A DNA stretch of 64,000 nucleotides from an uncultured Clostridia bacterium (GTDB lineage: Bacteria > Bacillota > Clostridia > TANB77 > CAG-465): assembly GCA_944388585.1 (NCBI GenBank), contig CALXJI010000004.1, forward strand, positions 58,156 through 122,155, in the 5' to 3' direction. Under the pieces are notes generated by a model that saw only the letters and a list, made by a program, of their open reading frames with translations, had not been told where the DNA came from and searched no databases. Positions 1 to 11,058 of this stretch are shown here, in pieces (position 1 is the stretch's first letter; every line of letters starts with the position of its first letter). Position numbers and translations under genes: made by a program.

Positions 1-187
1 CATTAGAATAATATTTTTTCTCATTAGTTTTAAATACTCCAACTGTAAAATCATTTGTTGCACCAAGTGCATTAACGTTTGCAAGTTTTATATTTTCTTT
101 TGACGCAATCTCTTTTATTTTCTCAAGTACTTCTTCTCCTTTATCTATTCTTGCAACTATGGTGTTATTAAATCTTCTATAATCCAT
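1..187 (-). CDS. PPC/DUF296-domain putative DNA-binding protein (runs off the left edge)
   Basis: Hand translation from ATG 187 (GGAGG RBS): MDYRRFNNTIVARIDKGEEVLEKIKEIASKENIKLANVNALGA..., typical DUF296 N-terminus; absent from the ORF track. Confidence 0.75.
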   Translation of the reverse strand, partial: MDYRRFNNTIVARIDKGEEVLEKIKEIASKENIKLANVNALGATNDFTVGVFKTNEKKYYSN

Positions 188-307
188 AATGATTACCTCC
201 TATTAAAACTTATATATCATATTAATCACATAAAAATTATACTATATTTTATTTATAAAGTCTAAATATTTACCTAAAAATGTTATTTATTATTTTTTTA
301 AAAAATA

Positions 308-336
308 AGGCACTTCCTTTTTTAAGATAGTGCTTT
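308..336 (-). terminator. Intrinsic terminator after GNAT 363-779
   Basis: Minus strand AAAGCACT...AGTGCCTT hairpin followed by a T-run. Confidence 0.55.
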
Positions 337-362
337 AAAATAAATTGTTTAAAAATATAAGC

Positions 363-779
363 TTAAAAATATTTAACTAAAAAATATTTAGTAAGTTTAG
401 GATTTACTTTATTTTCTCTTACGAATTCAACTTTAAATCCACACTTTTTATAAAATTCAGGTGCTTGAAATTCATAAGTACTTAAATTAATATTTTTAAA
501 TTCTTTATTTTTAAAATAATTTTCAACTGCTTCTATAAGCCTACTACCAATATGTCTGTTACGATACTCTTCAAGTATAATAAGATCACTTATATGTACT
601 TCATTATAGTATGAATGTCCCGTTATTATTCCAACAATATTTTCATCTTCTTTAGCCACAAAATTAAATGATTTATAATTACAGACCACATCATTTTTTG
701 CAGCAAATTTATTAAATTCATCATCTATCATATCATTAATATTGTCATCTAGATTTTCTTTATATTCTATATTTAACAT
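363..779 (-). CDS. GNAT N-acetyltransferase
   Basis: YRNRHIGSRL motif A, FQAPEFYKKCGF; GGAGG RBS. Confidence 0.85.
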   Translation of the reverse strand: MLNIEYKENLDDNINDMIDDEFNKFAAKNDVVCNYKSFNFVAKEDENIVGIITGHSYYNEVHISDLIILEEYRNRHIGSRLIEAVENYFKNKEFKNINLSTYEFQAPEFYKKCGFKVEFVRENKVNPKLTKYFLVKYF

Positions 780-797
780 TGCTATCCTCCTAATAAA

Positions 798-1460
798 TTA
801 CTTTTTACTTAATATATATTTTATTATATTATATATCTTTTCACTATGAACTATATAACTACTATGATTTTCTTTAGGAATTATTTCTAATGTACTATTT
901 TTTATATTTTTTGCAATTAATCTTGTATGTTCTTCTTTTATAACATCTTTCTCTCCTGCTAAAATATAAGTAGAAACTTCTATTTTTTCTAAATCTTTAA
1001 TAGTTATATTAGGTTCTTGTATCATCATTTTAAATAACTTGTTTCTGGTAATAAAATACCCTATCTTTGATACTATCAACATAGATTTAGACATTCCATT
1101 TGGATTTAAGTTAGCTCCACTTACAATTAGTTTAGACAACAATTTAGGCTCCTTTATTGCAATTAACAGTCCTATTATACCACCATCACTAAACCCATAA
1201 AATATAGGTTTAGTGATCTTCAATTTTTTTATAAACTCAATCATATCTTCAGCCATTAAGTCATATGATATTGTTTTTGTCTTTTCACTTTTCCCATGAC
1301 ATCTACTATCAACAGCATATACTTTATAATCTTCTTTTAATTTGTCTATTAATACATCGAATATTTGATGTGTTTCACTATTTCCATGTACTAATATGAT
1401 TGGCATTCCACTTCCATAAACTTCATAATATAAATTTACACCATTTACATTAATATACAT
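798..1460 (-). CDS. Alpha/beta fold hydrolase
   Basis: HG oxyanion motif, DSRCHGKS, GFSDG nucleophile elbow, C-terminal His. Confidence 0.85.
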   Translation of the reverse strand: MYINVNGVNLYYEVYGSGMPIILVHGNSETHQIFDVLIDKLKEDYKVYAVDSRCHGKSEKTKTISYDLMAEDMIEFIKKLKITKPIFYGFSDGGIIGLLIAIKEPKLLSKLIVSGANLNPNGMSKSMLIVSKIGYFITRNKLFKMMIQEPNITIKDLEKIEVSTYILAGEKDVIKEEHTRLIAKNIKNSTLEIIPKENHSSYIVHSEKIYNIIKYILSKK

Positions 1461-1481
1461 TCTAATCTCCTCTACAAATCA

Positions 1482-1694
1482 CTATTTATCTTTTTTAATT
1501 AAAAATCCTATTCCTAAACCAATGCATAAGCCTATACTAATTCCAAAACATATACAGATAGGAATATTATCAATAAACACACCTATAATTATCCCTAGTG
1601 ATGTTCCAATGCACATTCCTATTGACATTCCTTCTAACATATATGTTTTTGTTCCATCTTTAATTTCTTGCTTATTAACTTTCTTATTTTTCAT
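1482..1694 (-). CDS. Small glycine-zipper membrane protein
   Basis: 70 aa, two GxxxG-rich hydrophobic helices. Confidence 0.65.
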   Translation of the reverse strand: MKNKKVNKQEIKDGTKTYMLEGMSIGMCIGTSLGIIIGVFIDNIPICICFGISIGLCIGLGIGFLIKKDK

Positions 1695-1753
1695 AATATC
1701 CTCATTTTCAAATCACTATTTTATAACTAATCAATAATTAGAAATTTCTATAA

Positions 1754-2275
1754 TTATATACTAAATATAATTTCATGCTTTGTTATTTTTTCAATATCTT
1801 CACATAATTTATTTATATTATTCATGAATACAATTTCATACTTTGAAAATTTTTTATCTTTGCTAGATATTACCATTTCTTTATTTCCAATAAAAGATAA
1901 TAAATAACAATTATTCTCCTTATCAGTAATGCATTCTATTTTTCTTACTTGTTGCATATTGATAGTATAGCTTTCTTCCAAATATTTAATTATTATTTTA
2001 TTGTCTTCTACATCAACTTTTGCCACTACTATTATTTTCTTTCTTAGCTTATATGCAAAATAGATACCTACTATTATAGGAAAAATAACAATATCAAACG
2101 CATTCCAAGTATTTTGTGGCTCTTTCCAATTGGTAACTATTTCCTTAATACCATCATTTTGGCTATGTAAATAACTTATGCATAATAAAAATATTAATGT
2201 TATTAATAATATAATAATACAAATAATATTTAAAATTCCAAACTTACCATCAACTTTAATTTTATAATTATTCAT
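1754..2275 (-). CDS. Hypothetical membrane protein (2 TM plus soluble C-terminal domain)
   Basis: AGGAG RBS, two hydrophobic segments. Confidence 0.6.
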   Translation of the reverse strand: MNNYKIKVDGKFGILNIICIIILLITLIFLLCISYLHSQNDGIKEIVTNWKEPQNTWNAFDIVIFPIIVGIYFAYKLRKKIIVVAKVDVEDNKIIIKYLEESYTINMQQVRKIECITDKENNCYLLSFIGNKEMVISSKDKKFSKYEIVFMNNINKLCEDIEKITKHEIIFSI

Positions 2276-2319
2276 TTCAATACTCCTAACAATTAAATTA
2301 CTATTTATAATATTAGCTA

Positions 2320-2832
2320 CTATATTTCAAATTCTTTTCCATATTTAACAATGCCTTTTATTTCTTTATTTGTATCATTTAATTTTATTGCCATAAAATT
2401 TTTATAAGGTACTTCAAAAGGAGCTTTTATTCCATATTTCACTGCTGGAACATAACCAAATCGTGGATAGTAATTTTCACTGCCCAAAACAACAGAATAG
2501 TGATATTCTAATTTTTTTGCTACTTCATGACCTTTTTCTATTAATTTTCTTCCAATTCCTTGTCCTTGATACTCAGGTAAAACTGCTAATGGTGCTAATG
2601 CTAATTCTGTATTTTTACCTATTTTTATTTTTGTAAACAAAATATATCCTACAATTTTATTATCTTTAATAGCAACTAAAGATAATTTTTGAATAAAATT
2701 TTCACTTTTTCTTAGTTCTATAACTAAATCCTGTTCATTACCATCACTATGTTCTGCTCCTTCAAATGCAATTTTTACAACATTATATACATCTTCATAG
2801 TCATCTATATTCTCTTGTCTTATTTCTAACAT
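2320..2832 (-). CDS. GNAT N-acetyltransferase (YhbS-like)
   Basis: LAPLAVLPEYQGQGIG, VVLG...YYPRFGY. Confidence 0.85.
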   Translation of the reverse strand: MLEIRQENIDDYEDVYNVVKIAFEGAEHSDGNEQDLVIELRKSENFIQKLSLVAIKDNKIVGYILFTKIKIGKNTELALAPLAVLPEYQGQGIGRKLIEKGHEVAKKLEYHYSVVLGSENYYPRFGYVPAVKYGIKAPFEVPYKNFMAIKLNDTNKEIKGIVKYGKEFEI

Positions 2833-2926
2833 TATATTCTCCTTTAATCCCTAGTATTTTAATATTAATTTATTACTTCTTAATACTACCATAATAATAT
2901 ATAATTATCAATCAAATTTATAAACT

Positions 2927-3478
2927 TTAACTGTTTTTATCTTCACCTATAAACTTTAGCCACCAATTTTGTTTTTTAAGAAATCTATCTGCTATTTTAA
3001 ATATGCCATAACCAATAACTCCACCTAAAAGATTAGTTATAACATCATCTATATCTGCTGCTCTACCTATAAAATACTGAATAAATTCTACTCCAAATGT
3101 TACAAAAAATGCTATTATAGTTATTTTATATAGTTTTCTTTTACTTTTAAATACAATAGGAAGAAAAAATCCAAGCGGTATGAATAACATAATATTAGGA
3201 ATCTTTTCATTTATAAATTGATACGGCCCATAAATATTTTCATTAAAATTAAAAGGTATTAAATTTAAAACATACCTTTTTGGTGGAAATTCAATTGGCA
3301 TATATAGTATAGTTGCAAATATAATTAAAAATAATGAACAAATTAATCCCAAATAGCTTAATTGTCTAATAACATTTTTACCTTTCTTTTTTAAATAAAA
3401 TAATATTGGTAGATATAATATAGTTATAACTATAACGAATATAATAGCTAATCTAACATATGCATCTATCCTTTGCAT
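2927..3478 (-). CDS. VanZ family membrane protein
   Basis: NLIPF, NIMLFIPLGF, EFIQY...GRAADIDDVITN. Confidence 0.85.
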   Translation of the reverse strand: MQRIDAYVRLAIIFVIVITILYLPILFYLKKKGKNVIRQLSYLGLICSLFLIIFATILYMPIEFPPKRYVLNLIPFNFNENIYGPYQFINEKIPNIMLFIPLGFFLPIVFKSKRKLYKITIIAFFVTFGVEFIQYFIGRAADIDDVITNLLGGVIGYGIFKIADRFLKKQNWWLKFIGEDKNS

Positions 3479-3549
3479 AAAAATTACCTCACTTATTTTT
3501 TTAAAATAATATCATAATAAAATGACTTTTTTATGACTTTTATATAAAA

Positions 3550-3572
3550 ATAGACGACAATATGCCGTCTAT
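3550..3572 (-). terminator. Intrinsic terminator
   Basis: Minus strand ATAGACGGCA-loop-TGTCGTCTAT then T-run, directly after the stop of 3573-3905. Confidence 0.7.
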
Positions 3573-3905
3573 TTACTTTTTTTTGTATTTATTTAAAATG
3601 CTACCTATAAAAGTACCAATTAATGCAAAAATAAAATACACTATCATATATATATAAGCTGTCTTGTTATAAAAAATAAACATAGTAGGTAAAAATAATA
3701 ATGCTATAATTATAGATATCCATATTTTAAATCCATACTTTTTACAAAATACAATTGCCGCAATTAATGAATAAAGTGAGTTAATAAACCATAAATCTAA
3801 TAAAAATGTATACGTAACAGTTTCAGGAAATATATCATTTAAAATAGGAATTATATTATATATTACTAAAGATAAAATTATTATACCAATTATTTTTTTA
3901 CTCAT
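3573..3905 (-). CDS. Hypothetical 4-TM membrane protein
   Basis: 110 aa, hydrophobic; GAGGT RBS. Confidence 0.65.
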   Translation of the reverse strand: MSKKIIGIIILSLVIYNIIPILNDIFPETVTYTFLLDLWFINSLYSLIAAIVFCKKYGFKIWISIIIALLFLPTMFIFYNKTAYIYMIVYFIFALIGTFIGSILNKYKKK

Positions 3906-3919
3906 TATCTACCTCTATT

Positions 3920-4357
3920 TTAATAATTTTTACTTTCTAAAAACTCTTTTAATTCATTTTCATCTTTAAATATCTTATCAAAAATAAGATATAATGAATC
4001 AGTTACATCATATTCTCCTATAGCATAACATTTTTTCCCCATTCCATATGCAATGCCAGCTTCAATATGTGCAGATTTACCAGCTGGAAGTACAATTAAA
4101 AAGTTTTCAGAATTTTTCTCTCCATCTAAATCATGTTCAAAAATTGTTCTAACTCTAGGATTATCAAGTCCTAATGATTCAAAAGTATCGGCAAGATGAC
4201 TATCATTTATATCAAGCCCTGCCTCTTTATGTGATGCTTCATTTTTTAAAAAGCAATAATGTGAAATATTTAAATCCTCAAATATTTTACAAACATTTAA
4301 AATATTCTCCCTATTTCTAGTTCTACCTGCAATAAAAAATTTATACTTATACTCCAT
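3920..4357 (-). CDS. Nucleoside 2-deoxyribosyltransferase-like protein
   Basis: FFIAG near N-terminus, FEHD, LPAGKSAHIEAGIAYGMGK. Confidence 0.65.
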   Translation of the reverse strand: MEYKYKFFIAGRTRNRENILNVCKIFEDLNISHYCFLKNEASHKEAGLDINDSHLADTFESLGLDNPRVRTIFEHDLDGEKNSENFLIVLPAGKSAHIEAGIAYGMGKKCYAIGEYDVTDSLYLIFDKIFKDENELKEFLESKNY

Positions 4358-4366
4358 AACTTCCTC

Positions 4367-4867
4367 CTATTTATTAATATCAACAAATTCTTCCTTCAAT
4401 AATCCAGTAATACACTCATCAACATAATCATTAGTTGCTAAGCATAAATATCTTTTTCTTCTTATTCCTTCATCTTTATATCCAAGTTTATACTGCATAT
4501 TTCTAGATTTTTCATTTTCCTTAAAATATCCATTTTCTAATCTTCTTAAATTTAGTATCTCAAAGCAAAACTTAGCTCTTATACAAAAAGCTTCTATGCC
4601 ATATCCATTTTTTTGATAGCTTTCATTTAGCCAAATTCCACCACCAGCCGTACCATCTTTTTTATTTATATTTTCTATTGTTGTACCACCTATAACTTTA
4701 CCATTTTCCTTTAAAACTATAGCAAGCATTATATTATTTTCATTAGTCATATTTGAATATTCAATAAAATCTTTTGCATCTTGCTTTGTATATGGATACG
4801 GTATATTTGCAAGCCACTTTGATACATTTATATTATTAATATATTTATTTATAAAATTATTTTCTCG
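4367..4867 (-). pseudogene. RimJ/RimL-type GNAT, apparently 5'-truncated
   Basis: Frame open 4867-4367; GNAT-like sequence (NNINVSKWLANIPYPYTKQDA) continues upstream of the first ATG (4750) with no ATG/RBS, and the family N-terminus is missing. Confidence 0.55.
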
Positions 4868-5277
4868 TTATTTTTTGTACTTAAGTAAATTTTAATCTGT
4901 CGTATTATATGAGGAATATTATAATTACCAGCAAATTTATCATTATTTAACAAACTATCATTTATATCTAACCATTCTAATTTATTTTTTTCTTCTATTA
5001 GCTTTACTTCATGATTTAAAATACCATAAAAAACTTGTAAATTATTTTCATACTTAAAATAATTTATATCCATAAAATGATCTAATTCTATATCTTTATT
5101 TGATATTCCAGTTTCTTCAAATAATTCTCTGTATGCTGCTACATAATTTGATTCATTTTCTTCTACTTTTCCACCAACAAAATTATATAGACCTTTGTAT
5201 GGCTCTTTTGATCGAATACAAAAAAGAGCTTTATCTAAGTTTTTATTAAATACAACTATTAAATTTAACTTTCGCAT
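4849..5277 (-). CDS. NUDIX hydrolase
   Basis: Nudix box GGKVEENESNYVAAYRELFEETG; start placed at ATG 5277 after GGAG. Confidence 0.85.
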   Translation of the reverse strand: MRKLNLIVVFNKNLDKALFCIRSKEPYKGLYNFVGGKVEENESNYVAAYRELFEETGISNKDIELDHFMDINYFKYENNLQVFYGILNHEVKLIEEKNKLEWLDINDSLLNNDKFAGNYNIPHIIRQIKIYLSTKNNEKIIL

Positions 5278-5303
5278 ATTACTTCTCCATTTCAAATAGA
5301 AAT

Positions 5304-5702
5304 TTAGCTTATTAAACCTTTTTTATTTAAATCGTCAAATATTAATTTATCTACTTGAGAAATTTTTTCTAAATCATTACAGTTTAACCAATTTATACTT
5401 TCAATTTCACTACTAGGTTTTATATCACCATTAAAATCAGCTATATAGCATGTCATTTTTACTAATATTCCTTCATCTTTTGCATGTGCTTGTGCTTCAA
5501 ATGTTCCATAATACTGTATAGTATCTTTAATAATTTCAACATTTAGTTCTTCTTTACATTCTCTTATTAAAGTATCAGTATCTGATTCATCTTTTTCTCT
5601 TTTTCCACCAGGTAAATAATATATATCTTTTCCTTTAGATAATGTACATAATATTCTTTTGTCTTTTACATATATAAGTGCTATTTTATCTATTAATTTC
5701 AT
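5304..5702 (-). CDS. NUDIX hydrolase
   Basis: PGGKREKDESDTDTLIRECKEEL. Confidence 0.85.
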   Translation of the reverse strand: MKLIDKIALIYVKDKRILCTLSKGKDIYYLPGGKREKDESDTDTLIRECKEELNVEIIKDTIQYYGTFEAQAHAKDEGILVKMTCYIADFNGDIKPSSEIESINWLNCNDLEKISQVDKLIFDDLNKKGLIS

Positions 5703-5716
5703 ATATTCTCTTCTCC

Positions 5717-6196
5717 TTATTTATTTGCATTTTTTAACATTAACAAATGCTCAATCTGCCATTTTCTTTCATTTTCCATTATTTCTATAACATTTTTCTT
5801 ATCCTTATTAATATATTTAATAGCAGAAATAACATACATTGCTGTACCTTCCGCATGTGTAGGAACATGGCATGTAGCTAAGCAATGACTTGTTGCTCTT
5901 ACTATTTGGCAACAAGCTTTGTCTTCATTTTCAATTTTTCTTGCAAATTCTAATACTTTCCAACAATATTTTCTTGCCTCCCACATTGCTATTTTTCCAC
6001 TCATCCAATCTTTTAAAATATTAATAGCATTTTGTGGAATTTTTTCATTAGGATATTTTTGTTCAAAAAGGTAAAATACCCTATAAAGGCAATCAATAGC
6101 CCATTGAGCTAATATTTTTTGATCAGTTGTCTTTATTAATTCTTGAATTTCTGGATCATGCTTAGCTAACGAAAATTTTTTCATATCTATTGACAT
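5717..6196 (-). CDS. Putative immunity protein (Imm5-like helical domain)
   Basis: LAQWAIDC...P..AI...W..G...EARK...ATCHVPTHA...ERKWQ pattern, recognised by eye. Confidence 0.55.
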   Translation of the reverse strand: MSIDMKKFSLAKHDPEIQELIKTTDQKILAQWAIDCLYRVFYLFEQKYPNEKIPQNAINILKDWMSGKIAMWEARKYCWKVLEFARKIENEDKACCQIVRATSHCLATCHVPTHAEGTAMYVISAIKYINKDKKNVIEIMENERKWQIEHLLMLKNANK

Positions 6197-6219
6197 ATTT
6201 TCTCTCCAATAACTATAAT

Positions 6220-6780
6220 TTAAATATTATTTATATAATCATATATTTCTTTCCAACCACTTACTCTTTTAAAATTACAATCTTGTTGCAAATTTATTTT
6301 GCTATTAAATAGTAAAACACTATCTACTATTCCTTTTACACTATCTAAATTTTTTATATTATCATCTATAAATAAATCTATTTTTTCATCAATACAAACT
6401 TGTCTTTTATTATACGTACAAAAAAGTTTATCATAATTAATACCAAGATTATTTAATTGATTTGACGTAAATTCAAACGCTTTATCATAAAAAGCTTTAT
6501 CTCTTGCTGTAATAATTATTATTTTGTTTCCTTCAGATTTTAATTTATCTATAATTTCTTTTGCATCTTCTTTTAATGTAACATTTGGTAAAACTTGTTC
6601 AAACATCACTTTTCCTATCTCTTTTATTTTATCTTTATATTGTTCCAAGATTTTATCATAAGACATTTTATTACTTTCTTTTAATTTACCTATGTCTAAT
6701 GCACTATTTTTTGAAACATATGGTATCAAAATCTCTAAAGTATTAGTAATTGTGTCATCTATATCTATTCCTATATTCAT
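6220..6780 (-). CDS. HAD superfamily phosphatase (5'-nucleotidase/YqfW-like)
   Basis: IGIDIDDT motif I, ITAR, FIDD. Confidence 0.8.
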   Translation of the reverse strand: MNIGIDIDDTITNTLEILIPYVSKNSALDIGKLKESNKMSYDKILEQYKDKIKEIGKVMFEQVLPNVTLKEDAKEIIDKLKSEGNKIIIITARDKAFYDKAFEFTSNQLNNLGINYDKLFCTYNKRQVCIDEKIDLFIDDNIKNLDSVKGIVDSVLLFNSKINLQQDCNFKRVSGWKEIYDYINNI

Positions 6781-6805
6781 AATTTCCTCCAAATATAATT
6801 TTTTG

Positions 6806-7612
6806 CTAATTAAATCTTACTTCATTTTTTAGTCTATCTTTTTTGTCTTCATTTACTTTTTTCATTTTTTCATAGACTTCCTGCTTTAAAATTTCTATTT
6901 TTTGTTTTGTATCTCCTTGTTTTGGTGGTTCGATTGGTTCTACAATAGTTAATGTAACATCTTTTTTATATTTAAATAATTTTCTTATTCCTCGTGGTTC
7001 TCTAAAAGTAATAACTATTGGAACAATTTTTTTATTATTTTTAATTGCTATATTAAATGCCCCGTTTTTAAAGTGGCGTATTTTACTATGATATGGAATT
7101 AAAGATGCTTCAGGATACAAATGTACACTTTTTCCACTCTTTAAAATATCATCTATTGCATTCAAAAAATACTCTTTATTTTTTATACCTTCTGGTATTG
7201 GAATTGCTCTTAATAACTTTATTAATTTTCTAACACCAGGAATTTTAAAGCTTCCCTCTCGTGTTGTAAAATACACCTTTTTAAATCCATAGGCAAGACC
7301 TACCATTGCACAGTCTAAAAATAATACATGATTAGACACAGTAATTACGCTCTCTTTTATATCTCTTAAGTTTTCTTTTCCTTCAATTTCTAAATCATAT
7401 ACCACTTTAGTCAGTACTTTTAATATAGGATATGCTACTATATAATATACAAAATTAGATAAAATAGAAAAGATTACTCCTTTAGATACAAAATTATATT
7501 TTTCATCAATATTAAAATCTAATGGTTCCCACAACTTAATAATATGTTCATTTTCATCTTGAATTTCTAAATCATCAAGTTCTGCTACATTTTCATTATT
7601 ATCCTGTCTCAT
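6806..7612 (-). CDS. Lysophospholipid acyltransferase (PlsC family)
   Basis: NHVLFLD (HX4D), YPEA, FKNGAF. Confidence 0.85.
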   Translation of the reverse strand: MRQDNNENVAELDDLEIQDENEHIIKLWEPLDFNIDEKYNFVSKGVIFSILSNFVYYIVAYPILKVLTKVVYDLEIEGKENLRDIKESVITVSNHVLFLDCAMVGLAYGFKKVYFTTREGSFKIPGVRKLIKLLRAIPIPEGIKNKEYFLNAIDDILKSGKSVHLYPEASLIPYHSKIRHFKNGAFNIAIKNNKKIVPIVITFREPRGIRKLFKYKKDVTLTIVEPIEPPKQGDTKQKIEILKQEVYEKMKKVNEDKKDRLKNEVRFN

Positions 7613-9546
7613 TATTCTCCCTTTTCTTTCAACTCTTTACATATAAACTCTGCAATATCCATGCTTGCATTTCTATTTATGTATTTTCTTTGGTTTATTA
7701 CCATCTCTTTTTGTAATTTTTCATCAGTTAATAATTTCTTTGTATTTTTTATAACTTCTTCTTTAGTATCACTTTTTATTGACATTTTTAAATTTTGAAA
7801 AAAGTTAGAATTATAGTTTTCGCATCCAGGTATTGGCATTGTATGTATAAAAGGCTTACCTATAGTTGCAATTTCTGTTGTTGTTAGACCTCCAGGTTTT
7901 GTAAGAATAATATTAGAAGCCTTTATATAAAGATTTAATTTATCTGTAAATGGTAATAAGATAATTTTATCATTTCCTTCATATTCATTTTTTAGTTCGT
8001 TTAATAACTCATTGTTATTTCCACAAGATATTATAAAATTAGCATCTTTTATCTCGCTAATTAAATCTTTGATTAATCCTTTTATATTCCCAAATCCCAT
8101 ACTTCCTGTTAAAATTAATATATATTTTTCATCATTTTTTAAATTTAGTTCTTTTCTTACTTCTTCTATTTTATAATCTTGACTACACTCAAGTTGCACT
8201 GGTATTCCTAAAGGTATAAGCTTTTTTTCTTCTATTCCTTTTTTCATAAAATCTGCTTTTAGTTTTTCACTTGGAATTATGAAATAATCTGGATTAGTTT
8301 CCTCCCAAAAAGGAATACTTACATAATCTGTTGCAATAGCAATAAAATGAATATCATGCTCTTTTTTTATTGCAGTTAAAGCTTGAGCTGCAAATAGATG
8401 TGTAGTAACAACATAATCATAAAAATTATTTTCTATATAATAATATAATTTATTTCCATTTAACTTATTTAATGTATATATTGGAGATTTTAATCTTGTC
8501 TTTTGATACAACTTTCCTAAATTATATACATGCTTAAATACTTTGCCTTCATTATTTGTTGAATTTATATATAAATTATTTACAGTATCTTTTAAATTAG
8601 GTCTAGTTATTTCTAAATATTCTTTAAAATCTGCTTGTATATTTTTTACATTTAAAGCTTGTTTTACTGCTTTTGCTGCTGAATTATGTCCTCCGCCTGT
8701 GCCACATGAAAGTATCAGTACTTTTTTTGGCTTATTCTTTTTAATTTGTTTTAATATCTTATTATAAAAACAATCTAAGCTTCCAATATATTCTTTATTC
8801 CATGGTTTATTTCTTCCACAATAATGTATAATAACTGTATTTTTTATAATCCATTTTAAGGTTATTTTATTTTTTGAATTATTAATATTGAATTTATACC
8901 AAGCTATCTCACTTAAGTTATATTTTAGTTCATCTATTAATTTAATTTTATTTCCAAAAAGAGATACTATTATATCTTGATCTGGTAAAAGTAGTCTTTT
9001 TTGATTTTTCTCTATAAATTTTATTATTTTATCTTTTACATCTATTTTTCTTAGTTCTTTTAAATTAATTAGAAGAACACCAGTATTTACATACGGTTCA
9101 TCTTCTTGAATATTTAGTCTAATTTCATTAAATTTATGTAATACTTTACTTATATGTGTAGCTGCAATATAATAATTATCTTCAAAATCCATATTATATA
9201 GTTCTTTTAAATCGTTAATTACAACAGTATCACAATCTAAATATAATATTCTATCTATATCACTTGGTAAATAATCACTTGCAAATAGTCTAAAATAAAT
9301 TTCTACAGGATATCTTTTTTCTATAACAGGAAATGTATCAATTTCACTATCAGGTATTTTTACATCTATTACACTAAAGTTTTTCGAATCTAAATTTACA
9401 GTTATATTTTCAAGATCATCCTTATCTAAATTTTTATTTAAAACATATATATTAAATTTTTCTTCTTTATTAGAATATGCTATTGAATTTAATAATACAT
9501 TTAATTGCCTTATATATTTTTTATTTACTGATGTTAAAATATTCAT
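7612..9546 (-). CDS. Fused glycosyltransferase: N-terminal GT8 plus C-terminal MGDG-synthase/UgtP-like GT28
   Basis: GT8 motifs YLDCD, PDQD, HYCGRNKPW; GT28 motifs SCGTGGGH, ATDY, TKPGGLT. Confidence 0.85.
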   Translation of the reverse strand: MNILTSVNKKYIRQLNVLLNSIAYSNKEEKFNIYVLNKNLDKDDLENITVNLDSKNFSVIDVKIPDSEIDTFPVIEKRYPVEIYFRLFASDYLPSDIDRILYLDCDTVVINDLKELYNMDFEDNYYIAATHISKVLHKFNEIRLNIQEDEPYVNTGVLLINLKELRKIDVKDKIIKFIEKNQKRLLLPDQDIIVSLFGNKIKLIDELKYNLSEIAWYKFNINNSKNKITLKWIIKNTVIIHYCGRNKPWNKEYIGSLDCFYNKILKQIKKNKPKKVLILSCGTGGGHNSAAKAVKQALNVKNIQADFKEYLEITRPNLKDTVNNLYINSTNNEGKVFKHVYNLGKLYQKTRLKSPIYTLNKLNGNKLYYYIENNFYDYVVTTHLFAAQALTAIKKEHDIHFIAIATDYVSIPFWEETNPDYFIIPSEKLKADFMKKGIEEKKLIPLGIPVQLECSQDYKIEEVRKELNLKNDEKYILILTGSMGFGNIKGLIKDLISEIKDANFIISCGNNNELLNELKNEYEGNDKIILLPFTDKLNLYIKASNIILTKPGGLTTTEIATIGKPFIHTMPIPGCENYNSNFFQNLKMSIKSDTKEEVIKNTKKLLTDEKLQKEMVINQRKYINRNASMDIAEFICKELKEKGE

Positions 9547-9674: not shown

Positions 9675-9699
9675 AAAGCACTTTAAACTAAGCACTTTA
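9675..9699 (-). terminator. Terminator of rlmD
   Basis: AAAGTGCTT-loop-AAGTGCTTT stem with G-U pairs, then a T-rich tail. Confidence 0.5.
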
Positions 9700-11058
9700 C
9701 TTTTTTAACTCTAAATTTGTTACAACTTCACAATGCACACTATTTGGAAAAAGATCTACTGGTACTACTTTACCTATGTCATAATATGTACTTAAAAGCT
9801 TTAAATCACGTGCAAGTGTTGCAGGTGAGCAACTTACATAACCAATTTTTTTAGGTCTAAATTTTATAATATATTCTATACTTTCTAAATCTAAGCCTTT
9901 TCTTGGTGGATCAATTACTATGACATCCGGATGAATGTTTCTTTTTTCAAATTCTACTATTTTCTTATCTACGCTTCCTGCAATATACTCTGCATTTTTT
10001 ACATTATTTGCCTCTAAATTTAAATTTGCCATTTTAACAGCCTGCTCTTCTATTTCAATTCCGTATACTTTTTTTACATTACTGCTTAAAAATATTCCTA
10101 TTGAACCTACTCCGCTATATAAATCAAAAAGAATCTCATCACCTTTTAAATTTAAAAGCTCTTTTAATTTATTATACAATACTTCTGCTTGTACTGTATT
10201 TACTTGAAAAAAAGATTTTGAGCTTATATAATACTTATATTCTCCTATATAATCTGTAATGTATTCTACGCCATATACAAGCTTTTCTTCTTCACCTAAT
10301 ATTTCATTTGTTTTAGATGGATTAAAATTTAATATTATGCTTTTGATTTTATCGTTACTTTCTTTTAAGATTTTAACTATTTCCTCTATTCTTACATCTT
10401 CAAAAATTTCTTTTTTATTTACTACAATAACTATCATAGTCTCGTTTGTATGATATCCTCTTCTAATTAGAATATGACGTATATCTCCTTGATTAGTTTG
10501 TTCATTATATCCTACAAATCCTTTCAAAAGCAATAATTTAAATACTTCTTTAGAGAGTCTATCAATATCTTGATTTTGAATTAAACATTCCTCATTTTCT
10601 ATTACTTCATGGCTTCTTTTGGCATAAAATCCTATTTTATTTTTTCCATCTTTACCAATTCTTACAGGATACTGTGCTTTATTTCTGTAATTATATGGTA
10701 TTCCCATTCCTATTACTTTATCTAAAGATTCATATTTTACATCCTGTTTTTCCAAAGTATTTTTTACATTTTCATACTTTATTTCAAGTTGTGCCCTATA
10801 TTTTATATGCTGAGCTGAACACCCACCACATCTTTTATATACACTACAAAAAGGAGTTTGCCTTTTAGAACTCTCTTCTATTATTTTTTCAATTTTCCCT
10901 ATACAAAAGTTTTTATTTACTTTTATTATTTTAGTAAGTACTTTTTCTCCCTTTATAGCGTCAGGTACAAATACCACTTTATTGTCTACTCTTGAAATTC
11001 CCTCAAAATTTATTCCGTTATCTAAAATTTCTAACTCAATCTCATCATTTTTATTCAA
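9697..11058 (-). CDS. rlmD: 23S rRNA (uracil-C5)-methyltransferase RlmD
   Basis: TRAM domain, C..YKRCGGC cluster, SFFQVN, DPPRKG, YVSC. Confidence 0.92.
   Translation of the reverse strand: MNKNDEIELEILDNGINFEGISRVDNKVVFVPDAIKGEKVLTKIIKVNKNFCIGKIEKIIEESSKRQTPFCSVYKRCGGCSAQHIKYRAQLEIKYENVKNTLEKQDVKYESLDKVIGMGIPYNYRNKAQYPVRIGKDGKNKIGFYAKRSHEVIENEECLIQNQDIDRLSKEVFKLLLLKGFVGYNEQTNQGDIRHILIRRGYHTNETMIVIVVNKKEIFEDVRIEEIVKILKESNDKIKSIILNFNPSKTNEILGEEEKLVYGVEYITDYIGEYKYYISSKSFFQVNTVQAEVLYNKLKELLNLKGDEILFDLYSGVGSIGIFLSSNVKKVYGIEIEEQAVKMANLNLEANNVKNAEYIAGSVDKKIVEFEKRNIHPDVIVIDPPRKGLDLESIEYIIKFRPKKIGYVSCSPATLARDLKLLSTYYDIGKVVPVDLFPNSVHCEVVTNLELKK

Follow-up and report, generated by a model that had tools for sequence, protein, structure and literature searches.

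We identified a 14-nucleotide (nt) element, TAAATAGTRATTTR, at four consecutive junctions of a small-gene array in the chromosome of an uncultured Clostridia bacterium, where it lies on the coding (minus) strand and ends 14-18 nt upstream of an ATG. The array occupies 363..6780 of the 64,000-nt stretch of DNA that we analyzed, here called the window, which corresponds to positions 58156-122155 of contig C4 (220,736 bp) of a genome of 1.57 Mb, 12 contigs and 26% G+C. This genome is designated G000; other G numbers denote genomes and L numbers denote loci used for comparison. Open reading frame (ORF) reading of the minus strand gives 13 co-oriented small accessory genes of 70-220 aa that share no common pathway. 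A preliminary description of the window had counted 14 short unrelated genes; the small size and the lack of relationship hold, and the number does not. We put a probability of roughly 45% on the reading that the 14-mer is a leader or junction element for shuffling promoterless single-gene modules, in the manner of the PeSL cassettes of T4-type phages.

The four 14-mers and their spacings of 14, 14, 14 and 18 nt, as first listed in the preliminary description, were borne out by sequence reading and by a motif search. The first copy, TAAAAAGTAATTTA (794..807, minus strand, as for all window features below), has one mismatch to TAAATAGTRATTTR, includes the TAA stop codon of the hydrolase gene and lies 14 nt before the ATG of module 1, a 138-aa GNAT acetyltransferase (363..779; Pfam PF00583, 6.7e-16). 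The second, TAAATAGTGATTTG (1475..1488), matches without mismatch, includes the TAG stop codon of the 70-aa gene and lies 14 nt before the ATG of module 2, a 220-aa alpha/beta hydrolase (798..1460; PF00561, 5e-18). Module 3 is a 70-aa membrane protein gene recognized by ORF reading and missed by the gene caller (1482..1694); AAAATAGTGATTTG (1709..1722, one mismatch) precedes its ATG by 14 nt. Module 4 codes for a 173-aa protein without a Pfam family (1754..2275) and has TAAATAGTAATTTA (2294..2307, no mismatches) 18 nt before its ATG. Each of the four copies is followed by a Shine-Dalgarno sequence, two of the four contain the stop codon of the previous gene, and the junctions that carry the motif are 18-60 nt long in total. 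Read as sequence, the element and its frequent trailing TAG place stop codons in all three frames (TAA, TAG, TAA/TGA, then TAG).

The clustering and the position of the motif exceed what base composition would produce. With at most one mismatch allowed, there are 38 matches in the G000 genome (2 x 1.57 Mb). Four matches within 1.5 kb on one strand have a Poisson probability of about 1e-6 per start, or about 4e-5 after 38 starts. Five of the 38 lie 8-24 nt before a start assigned by the gene caller, and six when the copy before the missed 70-aa gene is counted. The corresponding controls were 0/46 for the pattern written backwards and 1/38 for its reverse complement (6/38 vs 1/84; Fisher P 0.004). 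The remaining two in-position copies are on contig C11, in a second small array, and upstream of rplN. As had been described before, the motif is absent from 48-55 kb of the window, where no copy with one mismatch or fewer was found. A k-mer enrichment upstream of gene starts returned only Shine-Dalgarno and TGATATAAT words, and the motif is therefore not a general initiation feature in this genome.

The same arrangement recurs across the genus and the order. In G009, another species of the genus, (A)GATAAATAGTAATTTG and a Shine-Dalgarno sequence stand at four consecutive junctions. The genes behind them code for a 63-aa membrane protein (37% identical to the window's 70-aa protein), a VanZ protein, a hydrolase homologous to that of the window and an ATC_hydrolase. 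Motif clusters are also present in G044, G023, G020 and G003. In 50 genomes of the genus, the pattern ATAGTRATTTR-N0-8-GGAG-N4-11-ATG gave 36 matches, compared with 2 for the backwards control. Across the order, the motif with Shine-Dalgarno sequence and ATG was found in 175 of 401 genomes, with 277 matches against, by our count, about 10 in the control; the backwards control is lenient because the start context is itself functional. Alignment of 32 distinct sites gave the consensus GA-TAAATAGTAATTTG-TA-GGAGG, with conservation at positions -2 to +13 and in the Shine-Dalgarno sequence, and with 10-22 nt (mode 14-16) between the end of the site and the ATG. Many sites lie 8-12 nt past a TGnTATAAT box, where transcripts are predicted to start, and others overlap a stop codon and lack a promoter.

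A second form of the motif, AAATTACAATTT, is the reverse complement of the first save one base. It is found upstream of ribosome-binding sites and also, for several modules, directly past the stop codon, so that these modules have near-identical 12-bp inverted ends. Other modules are flanked by direct repeats, and many carry the motif on their 5' side only. The sequence AAATTAC-N6-GTAATTT is a 7-6-7 inverted repeat. Taken as a 20-mer, which joins both forms, it has 31 matches vs 6 in the control; of 151 genomes of a second genus, 24 contain it. A genome-wide scan for pairs of the two forms in G000 was noisy (136 vs 127). Some junctions extend to about 90 nt and run from AAATTACAAT through a hairpin, a -10 box and about 11 nt to the motif. 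Terminator-promoter units of this sort lie between both motif forms in G000 C11 (~6440-6545) and in G294:C42. The C11 array itself (~6036-7425) reads promoter, motif, 55-aa membrane protein, the second motif form and a 58-aa protein, followed by a hairpin, promoter and motif before a 289-aa hydrolase. At its start, C11 overlaps the end of C8, and its own end falls inside TAAATTACAATTT.

The genes behind the motif include GNATs, alpha/beta hydrolases, VanZ proteins, a glyoxalase, a nitroreductase, small membrane proteins, an Erm-family methyltransferase and an Lsa-family ABC-F protein. The last two score slightly below their NCBIfam cut-offs (209.7 vs 212 bits for the Erm family and 705 vs 750 for the Lsa family). 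They form a gene pair, an Erm-family 23S rRNA methyltransferase and an Lsa-family ABC-F gene, at L150:1114-3656 and L066:19-2561. The Erm-type gene has an identical 28-nt leader in 10 genomes from 4 genera, with at least three unrelated promoters in front of it. This distribution points to a recent spread among chicken-gut Clostridia.

Sequence contexts switch at the motif. We compared 138 distinct sites with motif and Shine-Dalgarno sequence, a sample that is biased in that most came from loci retrieved for the motif. Twelve gene-start clusters had at least two members. Eight of these have 2-4 unrelated upstream contexts each, 22 in all, and in these eight the identity begins at AAATAG every time; the other four have a single context. 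The leader of the window's hydrolase is shared with homologues from another genus from GTGATTTG on, and the sequence to its left is unrelated. Homologues of this hydrolase were found in at least eight species, in different contexts. Ahead of one downstream element stands AAAT-N4-(A/G)TTT(A/T), which occurs there with four spacers and six left contexts. Events of gain and replacement could be read in the second genus (L033-L040, G092, G148, G380 and others), where one promoter-plus-motif leads into three different continuations. A 180-aa GNAT gene is present in L033 and absent in L034 and G092; its filled site has a motif-like copy on either side, and the empty site has one copy. In G380, a small ORF takes the place of the hydrolase between two motif copies.

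Two structured elements adjoin the motif in these loci. An element of 88 bp whose inverted arms match perfectly over 27 bp occupies L037:1715-1802, exactly between TAAAT and ATTTG, and L034 has two genes at this place. The element could be a bidirectional terminator or an insert resembling a miniature inverted-repeat transposable element. In L034 (15087-15140) and its relatives, a hairpin element (TGTTACTCTACTAATCG...CGATTAGTA) stands in the leader of a 201-aa gene, XRE-like by eye. The hairpin is 90-99% conserved among genomes, and the 4-nt spacer of the motif directly upstream differs.

The motif also explains some contig breaks. Contig ends were examined for 147 sites parsed from 150 listed (277 in all), after three overlapping alternative starts had been dropped. 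ATAG lies 51-88 nt from the contig start, with the gene pointing outward, at 11 of 72 minus-strand sites, and within 100 nt at none of 75 plus-strand sites (Fisher P 3e-4). The distances group at 51-54 and 70-78 nt. This grouping would fit contigs that run one assembler word (55 or 77) into sequence that several paths have in common. Contigs G008:C7 and G009:C3 both end 75 nt past ATAG, and G000 C11 terminates within the second motif form, as described above. The missing halves of contig-end genes were not binned in the five metagenome-assembled genomes (MAGs) that we searched.

The array occupies a chromosomal slot whose content varies between species. Its conserved left flank is a 139-aa PCC-domain gene (2..187, extending past the window edge), and its conserved right flank is a 336-aa RNA methyltransferase gene (9697..10707). 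Upstream of the array are genes for a 268-aa acyltransferase and a 644-aa GT8 + MGDG-synthase-type glycosyltransferase (6806..9546). This pair forms a conserved block in G027 and lies within the same insertion relative to G011, G022 and G053. In these last three genomes the order is UvrA-like gene, RNA methyltransferase, a single 171-aa gene and PCC gene; in G000 and G008, 9.3 kb with the glycosyltransferase, the acyltransferase and 13 small genes replaces the 171-aa gene. The right boundary of the 9.3-kb insertion, compared between G000 and G011 or G022, is not clearly at the motif; G011 has TAAATAGTATTTAG at the methyltransferase stop codon. G056 carries about 14 different small genes before the PCC gene and has one GNAT in common with the window; its array includes a homologue 86% identical to GNAT 363-779, without the motif. 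Other homologues of window genes in sister species lie on scattered contigs and in other orders.

On the reading we prefer, the 14-mer would form a conserved leader, or left edge, that single-gene accessory modules without a promoter of their own share across an order of small-genome gut Clostridia. A module would extend from the motif through the Shine-Dalgarno sequence and the gene to just past the stop codon. It could follow a promoter, the -10 box of which usually lies 8-12 nt upstream, or else a terminator-promoter unit or another gene. Modules would be gained, lost and replaced as units, with the sequence switching in the motif. We infer that copies of the shared junction element recombine through general host or transferred functions and that selection for expressed genes comes next. 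The putative role in expression would lie in the three-frame stop and the fixed short leader before the ribosome-binding site. The window array would represent four consecutive modules that are old and now stable, in a variable slot.

The closest parallel is found in phages. PeSL cassettes were reportedly the subject of a further study in T4-type phages by Comeau et al. in 2014 (PMC4122927). According to the available part of an earlier account, indels and replacements in T4-type phages are bounded by a conserved promoter and stem-loop element (Arbiol et al. 2010, PMC2839356). Several traits are shared with PeSL. Short conserved expression signals lie beside small genes that are non-essential and mostly of unknown kind, in regions that vary; the element bounds insertions, deletions and replacements, which we saw in related genomes and not in the window's array; and it comes without a linked, dedicated recombinase. 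Terminator-promoter units also make up some of the junctions described here (G000 C11, G294:C42). Unlike PeSL, the setting is a bacterial chromosome rather than a phage, and the constant part is a 14-nt leader by the ribosome-binding site rather than a promoter and stem-loop. The four window copies are without a clear promoter or hairpin and consist of just the 14-mer and a Shine-Dalgarno sequence.

Several observations weigh against this reading. RecA-type recombination is generally held to need a longer stretch than the shared element, which measures 14 nt in the window and ~45 nt at most elsewhere. The near-identical switch point in 22 contexts also looks more precise than general recombination would give. 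Breakpoints fall in the motif for some events in related genomes, but many lie at plain gene ends. Among ~22 breakpoint ends read by eye, 5-6 are at the motif and about 16 are not. In the best-studied related array, 3-4 of ~19 breakpoint clusters are at the motif and about 15 at plain gene ends, as counted in our own reading of 150 of 334 matches. None of the events read in a CAG:571-like lineage is at the motif. The hydrolase genes of G015, G016, G023, G012 and L038 are without the motif, which is thus not kept among orthologues. The bare 14-mer with one mismatch or fewer has 597 matches genus-wide against 495 in the control, an excess of only 20%, and most of these matches are noise.

The stability of the window's own array belongs on the same side. 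Gene order differs between species, but it is fixed within the species: no event was found in the window's own array. The G008 array is collinear at 98-99% identity, save for 146 bp missing from a G000 GNAT gene, and the metagenome contig L042 is 99.7% identical across 4 kb. Of 24 sequencing runs listed, 19, from 8 studies, contain at least 94% of 692 sampled array words, a share that measures content and not gene order and that includes two runs that may be the source. The runs containing the locus are mostly chicken gut by label.

The foremost alternative has the motif as the core site for an enzyme dedicated to mobilizing cassettes, whose gene would lie on a mobile element or in another part of the genome. 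We regard this as possible, on balance doubtful. The enzyme could be an integrase-like protein, a tyrosine recombinase of the kind that serves dif modules, or a transposase that works in trans as it does for mobile insertion cassettes. It would excise cassettes and insert them at the motif, preferably behind a promoter. The switch at the same few bases in 22 contexts and eight gene families is what such an enzyme would leave, and the contig-break distances that seem to match assembler words of 55 and 77 agree with it. The same holds for the motif-like copy on each side of the filled GNAT site and the single copy at the empty one, and for the near-identical 12-bp inverted ends that AAATTACAATTT past the stop codon gives several modules. 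A 7-6-7 inverted repeat is the layout of core-type recombinase sites, and AAATTAC-N6-GTAATTT, enriched as a 20-mer, falls in line with this. The three unrelated promoters found on one Erm-family gene each have their -10 box 9-10 nt before the motif. Seven tyrosine recombinases, one serine recombinase and one intact Y1 transposase in the genome could act in trans.

The case against a dedicated enzyme comes from the arrays themselves. No recombinase or transposase was seen near any array that we examined: the neighbors of the G044 array are housekeeping genes, and the cassettes of G294, G235 and G254 code for ankyrin, domain-of-unknown-function (DUF) and other miscellaneous proteins. In G000, the seven matches to PF00589 (tyrosine recombinase) include none on C4, over its 220,736 bp, or on C11, and the single match to PF00239 (serine recombinase) is on C5, with none on C4 or C11. 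A recombinase just beyond the left edge of the window, as the preliminary description had suggested, is ruled out because the 220-kb contig C4 has neither type. The arms of the motif are only 5 bp, and those of known recombinase sites are far longer. Breakpoints shift by a few bases, falling before AAATAG, after AAATAG or after AAATAGTAA. Tandem motif copies 5 nt apart are not an excision remnant, no target duplication was seen at the modules, the sole IS200-like element has unrelated ends, and the window's array is fixed in the species.

A broader form of the same idea is that gut Clostridia of this order own a gene-capture system in the role of the integron, with an unlinked recombinase or transposase and the window array as its fossil product. 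This, too, we would call unlikely, if worth keeping in view. Cassettes, including the Erm- and Lsa-family resistance genes, would carry the minimal 5' site TAAATAGTAATTTG and often AAATTACAATTT past the stop codon, and the enzyme would add them downstream of a promoter or of another cassette. The array is not an integron. The attC site is a structured imperfect palindrome of 57 bp or more at the 3' end of a cassette. Unlike in integrons, there is no intI beside the array or on its contig and no attC-sized structured site, the conserved site lies on the 5' side of the gene by the ribosome-binding site, and the array content is constant among close strains. An Rfam search at gathering scores returned only three tRNAs in the window, and whether Rfam includes an attC model was not checked. 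RNA folds of the four junctions were no better than those of shuffles (z -1.2 to +0.7). The likeness, as far as the available portions of the integron literature describe it, is in cassettes of single genes that share one orientation, are probably for the most part promoterless and cover a similar range of functions, in the short conserved word at junctions and in insertion beside a promoter. No complete integron is present in any Firmicutes genome, according to the accessible part of Cury et al. (2016, PMC4889954). The earlier proposal of an integron-like gene-capture array thus survives in its single-gene modules and variable slot and fails as an integron in the strict sense.

Two further mobile systems offer partial parallels. 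Mobile insertion cassettes (MICs), such as MIC231 of Bacillus cereus, carry passenger genes without a transposase. The near-identical 12-bp inverted ends of some modules resemble them, and mobilization in trans is conceivable. Unlike with MICs, a cognate insertion sequence with these ends was not found in a search restricted to Y1 transposases, no target duplication is apparent, and many modules carry the motif on the 5' side only or as direct repeats. The pdif sites are 28 bp long, with two 11-bp arms for XerC and XerD and a 6-bp spacer. No arms of 11 bp were seen in the 32 aligned sites; unlike in dif modules, only about 14-20 nt are conserved here, and the modules are chromosomal and co-oriented. 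The available parts of the reports on dif modules (pdif) of Acinetobacter plasmids describe small accessory or resistance modules between short recombination sites (PMC6449649, PMC13141974, PMC7399989). Like the modules described here, they have no recombinase of their own, and in these partial accounts host enzymes acting in trans are thought to move them.

We consider it improbable that the motif is purely regulatory, either as a repressor operator of a xenobiotic-response regulon or as a translation-tuning leader, with no role in recombination. Module boundaries would then coincide with the motif because only fusions that retain the signal survive. The fixed distance to the Shine-Dalgarno sequence and ATG among the 32 distinct sites suits this idea, as does the frequent position at the predicted transcript start, 8-12 nt past a TGnTATAAT box. 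Quasi-palindromes and tandem copies are typical of operators; the motif is itself a quasi-palindrome, and its tandem copies are spaced by about 19 nt. The genes behind it also share a detoxification and resistance theme. However, selection for a signal alone does not explain why, in 22 contexts, near 100% identity gives way abruptly to unrelated sequence once the motif is reached. Spacing to the -10 box ranges over 4-25 nt, and many copies overlap the previous stop codon and lack a promoter. The motif is often missing from orthologues, no regulator gene accompanies it, and the junction RNA folds are no better than those of shuffles.

Chance similarity in 23% G+C DNA, favored by stop codons and by spacers rich in A/T upstream of ribosome-binding sites, is very improbable as the origin of the motif as a whole. 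Our counts divide by stringency: the AGTR form with one mismatch or fewer is above chance, but the loose forms are not. With two mismatches allowed, the window has 32 matches vs 25.2 expected, and 9 of 100 shuffles had 32 or more. The free-spacer form TAAAT-N4-ATTTR precedes 8 genes in the genome, within the span of 1-13 given by 40 permutations of the arms (the form itself included). The preliminary description had added three variants, TAAATTTCTATTTG at 5293..5306 and others at 6209-6222 and 6790-6803. These arms-only look-alikes are at chance level in AT-rich DNA, since the arms-only form does no better than its permutations. The slight genus-wide excess of the bare 14-mer, noted above, also favors chance. 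For the AGTR form, chance is refuted by the cluster of four copies in 1.5 kb on one strand (P ~4e-5), the in-position counts (6/38 vs 1/84), the four consecutive junctions of G009, the order-wide pattern (277 vs about 10) and the composite 20-mer (31 vs 6).

The match upstream of rplN was considered as a real copy and rejected; there, a conserved C-terminus and stop codons meet a ribosome-binding-site context, an example of how coding, stop and initiation sequence can assemble the 14-mer. Among 25 rpsQ-rplN junctions read of 30 loci (L075-L104 and L062:4470-4520 cover this region), the full 14-mer is present in G053 only. In 18 of 25 species, TAAATAGTAA represents the S17 C-terminus (..VK), the stop codon and TAA, and a spacer of variable length separates TAAATAGTAA from TTTGAAGGGAGG.

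If a single ancestral gene and the region upstream of it had been duplicated locally in tandem, four adjacent, co-oriented copies would result, but this is hardly credible and is contradicted by the unrelated gene families (GNAT, alpha/beta hydrolase, a 70-aa membrane protein and a family-less 173-aa protein), by junction similarity that ends at about 20 nt and by unrelated genes behind the same motif in other genera.

Our literature search, which left supplementary files aside, found no description of the motif or of such arrays in Clostridia. How runs of unrelated accessory genes are assembled in small-genome gut Clostridia has so far been unexplained. The junction word provides a sequence handle for finding cassette-like modules in MAGs, and it flags genes that move between genera in the chicken gut, such as the Erm-/Lsa-family pair. 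If an enzyme is behind the motif, it would define a new cassette system. If there is none, the phage PeSL principle, in which regulatory elements serve as recombination substrates, would extend to bacterial chromosomes.

Nine genes of the array have a Pfam family, and four of the 13 fall below the Pfam cut-off for any family. The gene types given in the preliminary description (three GNATs, two NUDIX, a hydrolase, VanZ and Imm5_like) are backed by Pfam. Upstream of the four modules, a second GNAT acetyltransferase gene (170 aa, 2320..2832) is without the motif, and a 183-aa VanZ-like gene (2927..3478) has its own -10-like box and no motif, unlike the VanZ genes of G009 and G065, which do carry it. 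Two genes without a Pfam family (110 aa and 145 aa, 3573..4357) lie next to a GNAT gene that comparison with G008 showed to be truncated at its 5' end (4367..4750). At this place (window 4367-4860), G008 has an extra 146 bp at ~4831-4837 and an ORF of 181 aa. The remaining genes code for two NUDIX hydrolases (4849..5277 and 5304..5702), a 159-aa Imm5_like protein (5717..6196; PF21805, 3.6e-32) and a 186-aa NT5C/HAD-type nucleotidase (6220..6780; Pfam).

By eye, an inverted repeat followed by a T run (301..341) lies after the last array gene and resembles a terminator, although it was not called by the criteria of our scan. A hairpin with a T run and a -10-like box at ~3480-3575, also read by eye, indicates at least one such unit inside the array. 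The promoter and terminator scan (78 promoters vs 92 expected, 0 terminators) was uninformative in this AT-rich DNA.

We also considered other origins for the motif. A phage origin was rejected: a 21-mer had 0 exact matches in a viral contig collection. A link to IS200/IS605 insertion sequences was likewise rejected in a transposase search limited to Y1, in which the only intact Y1 transposase had ends unrelated to the motif. This IS200/IS605-type Y1 gene is at G000:C2:122099-122521 and has G+C-rich hairpins at its ends; a broken copy is at C1:357131-357483. In the CAG:571-like lineage (L038:14560-14820, L048, L049 and L051), insertions of 3-4.4 kb have entered a ylqF/rbgA-like GTPase gene within its first codons. 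Each insertion supplies new N-terminal codons, and the motif is uninvolved; they look like an integrative element aimed at the 5' end of the gene. Finally, contig C12 of G000 (3,181 bp) has 65.6% G+C in a bin of 26% G+C and is probably foreign to the genome.

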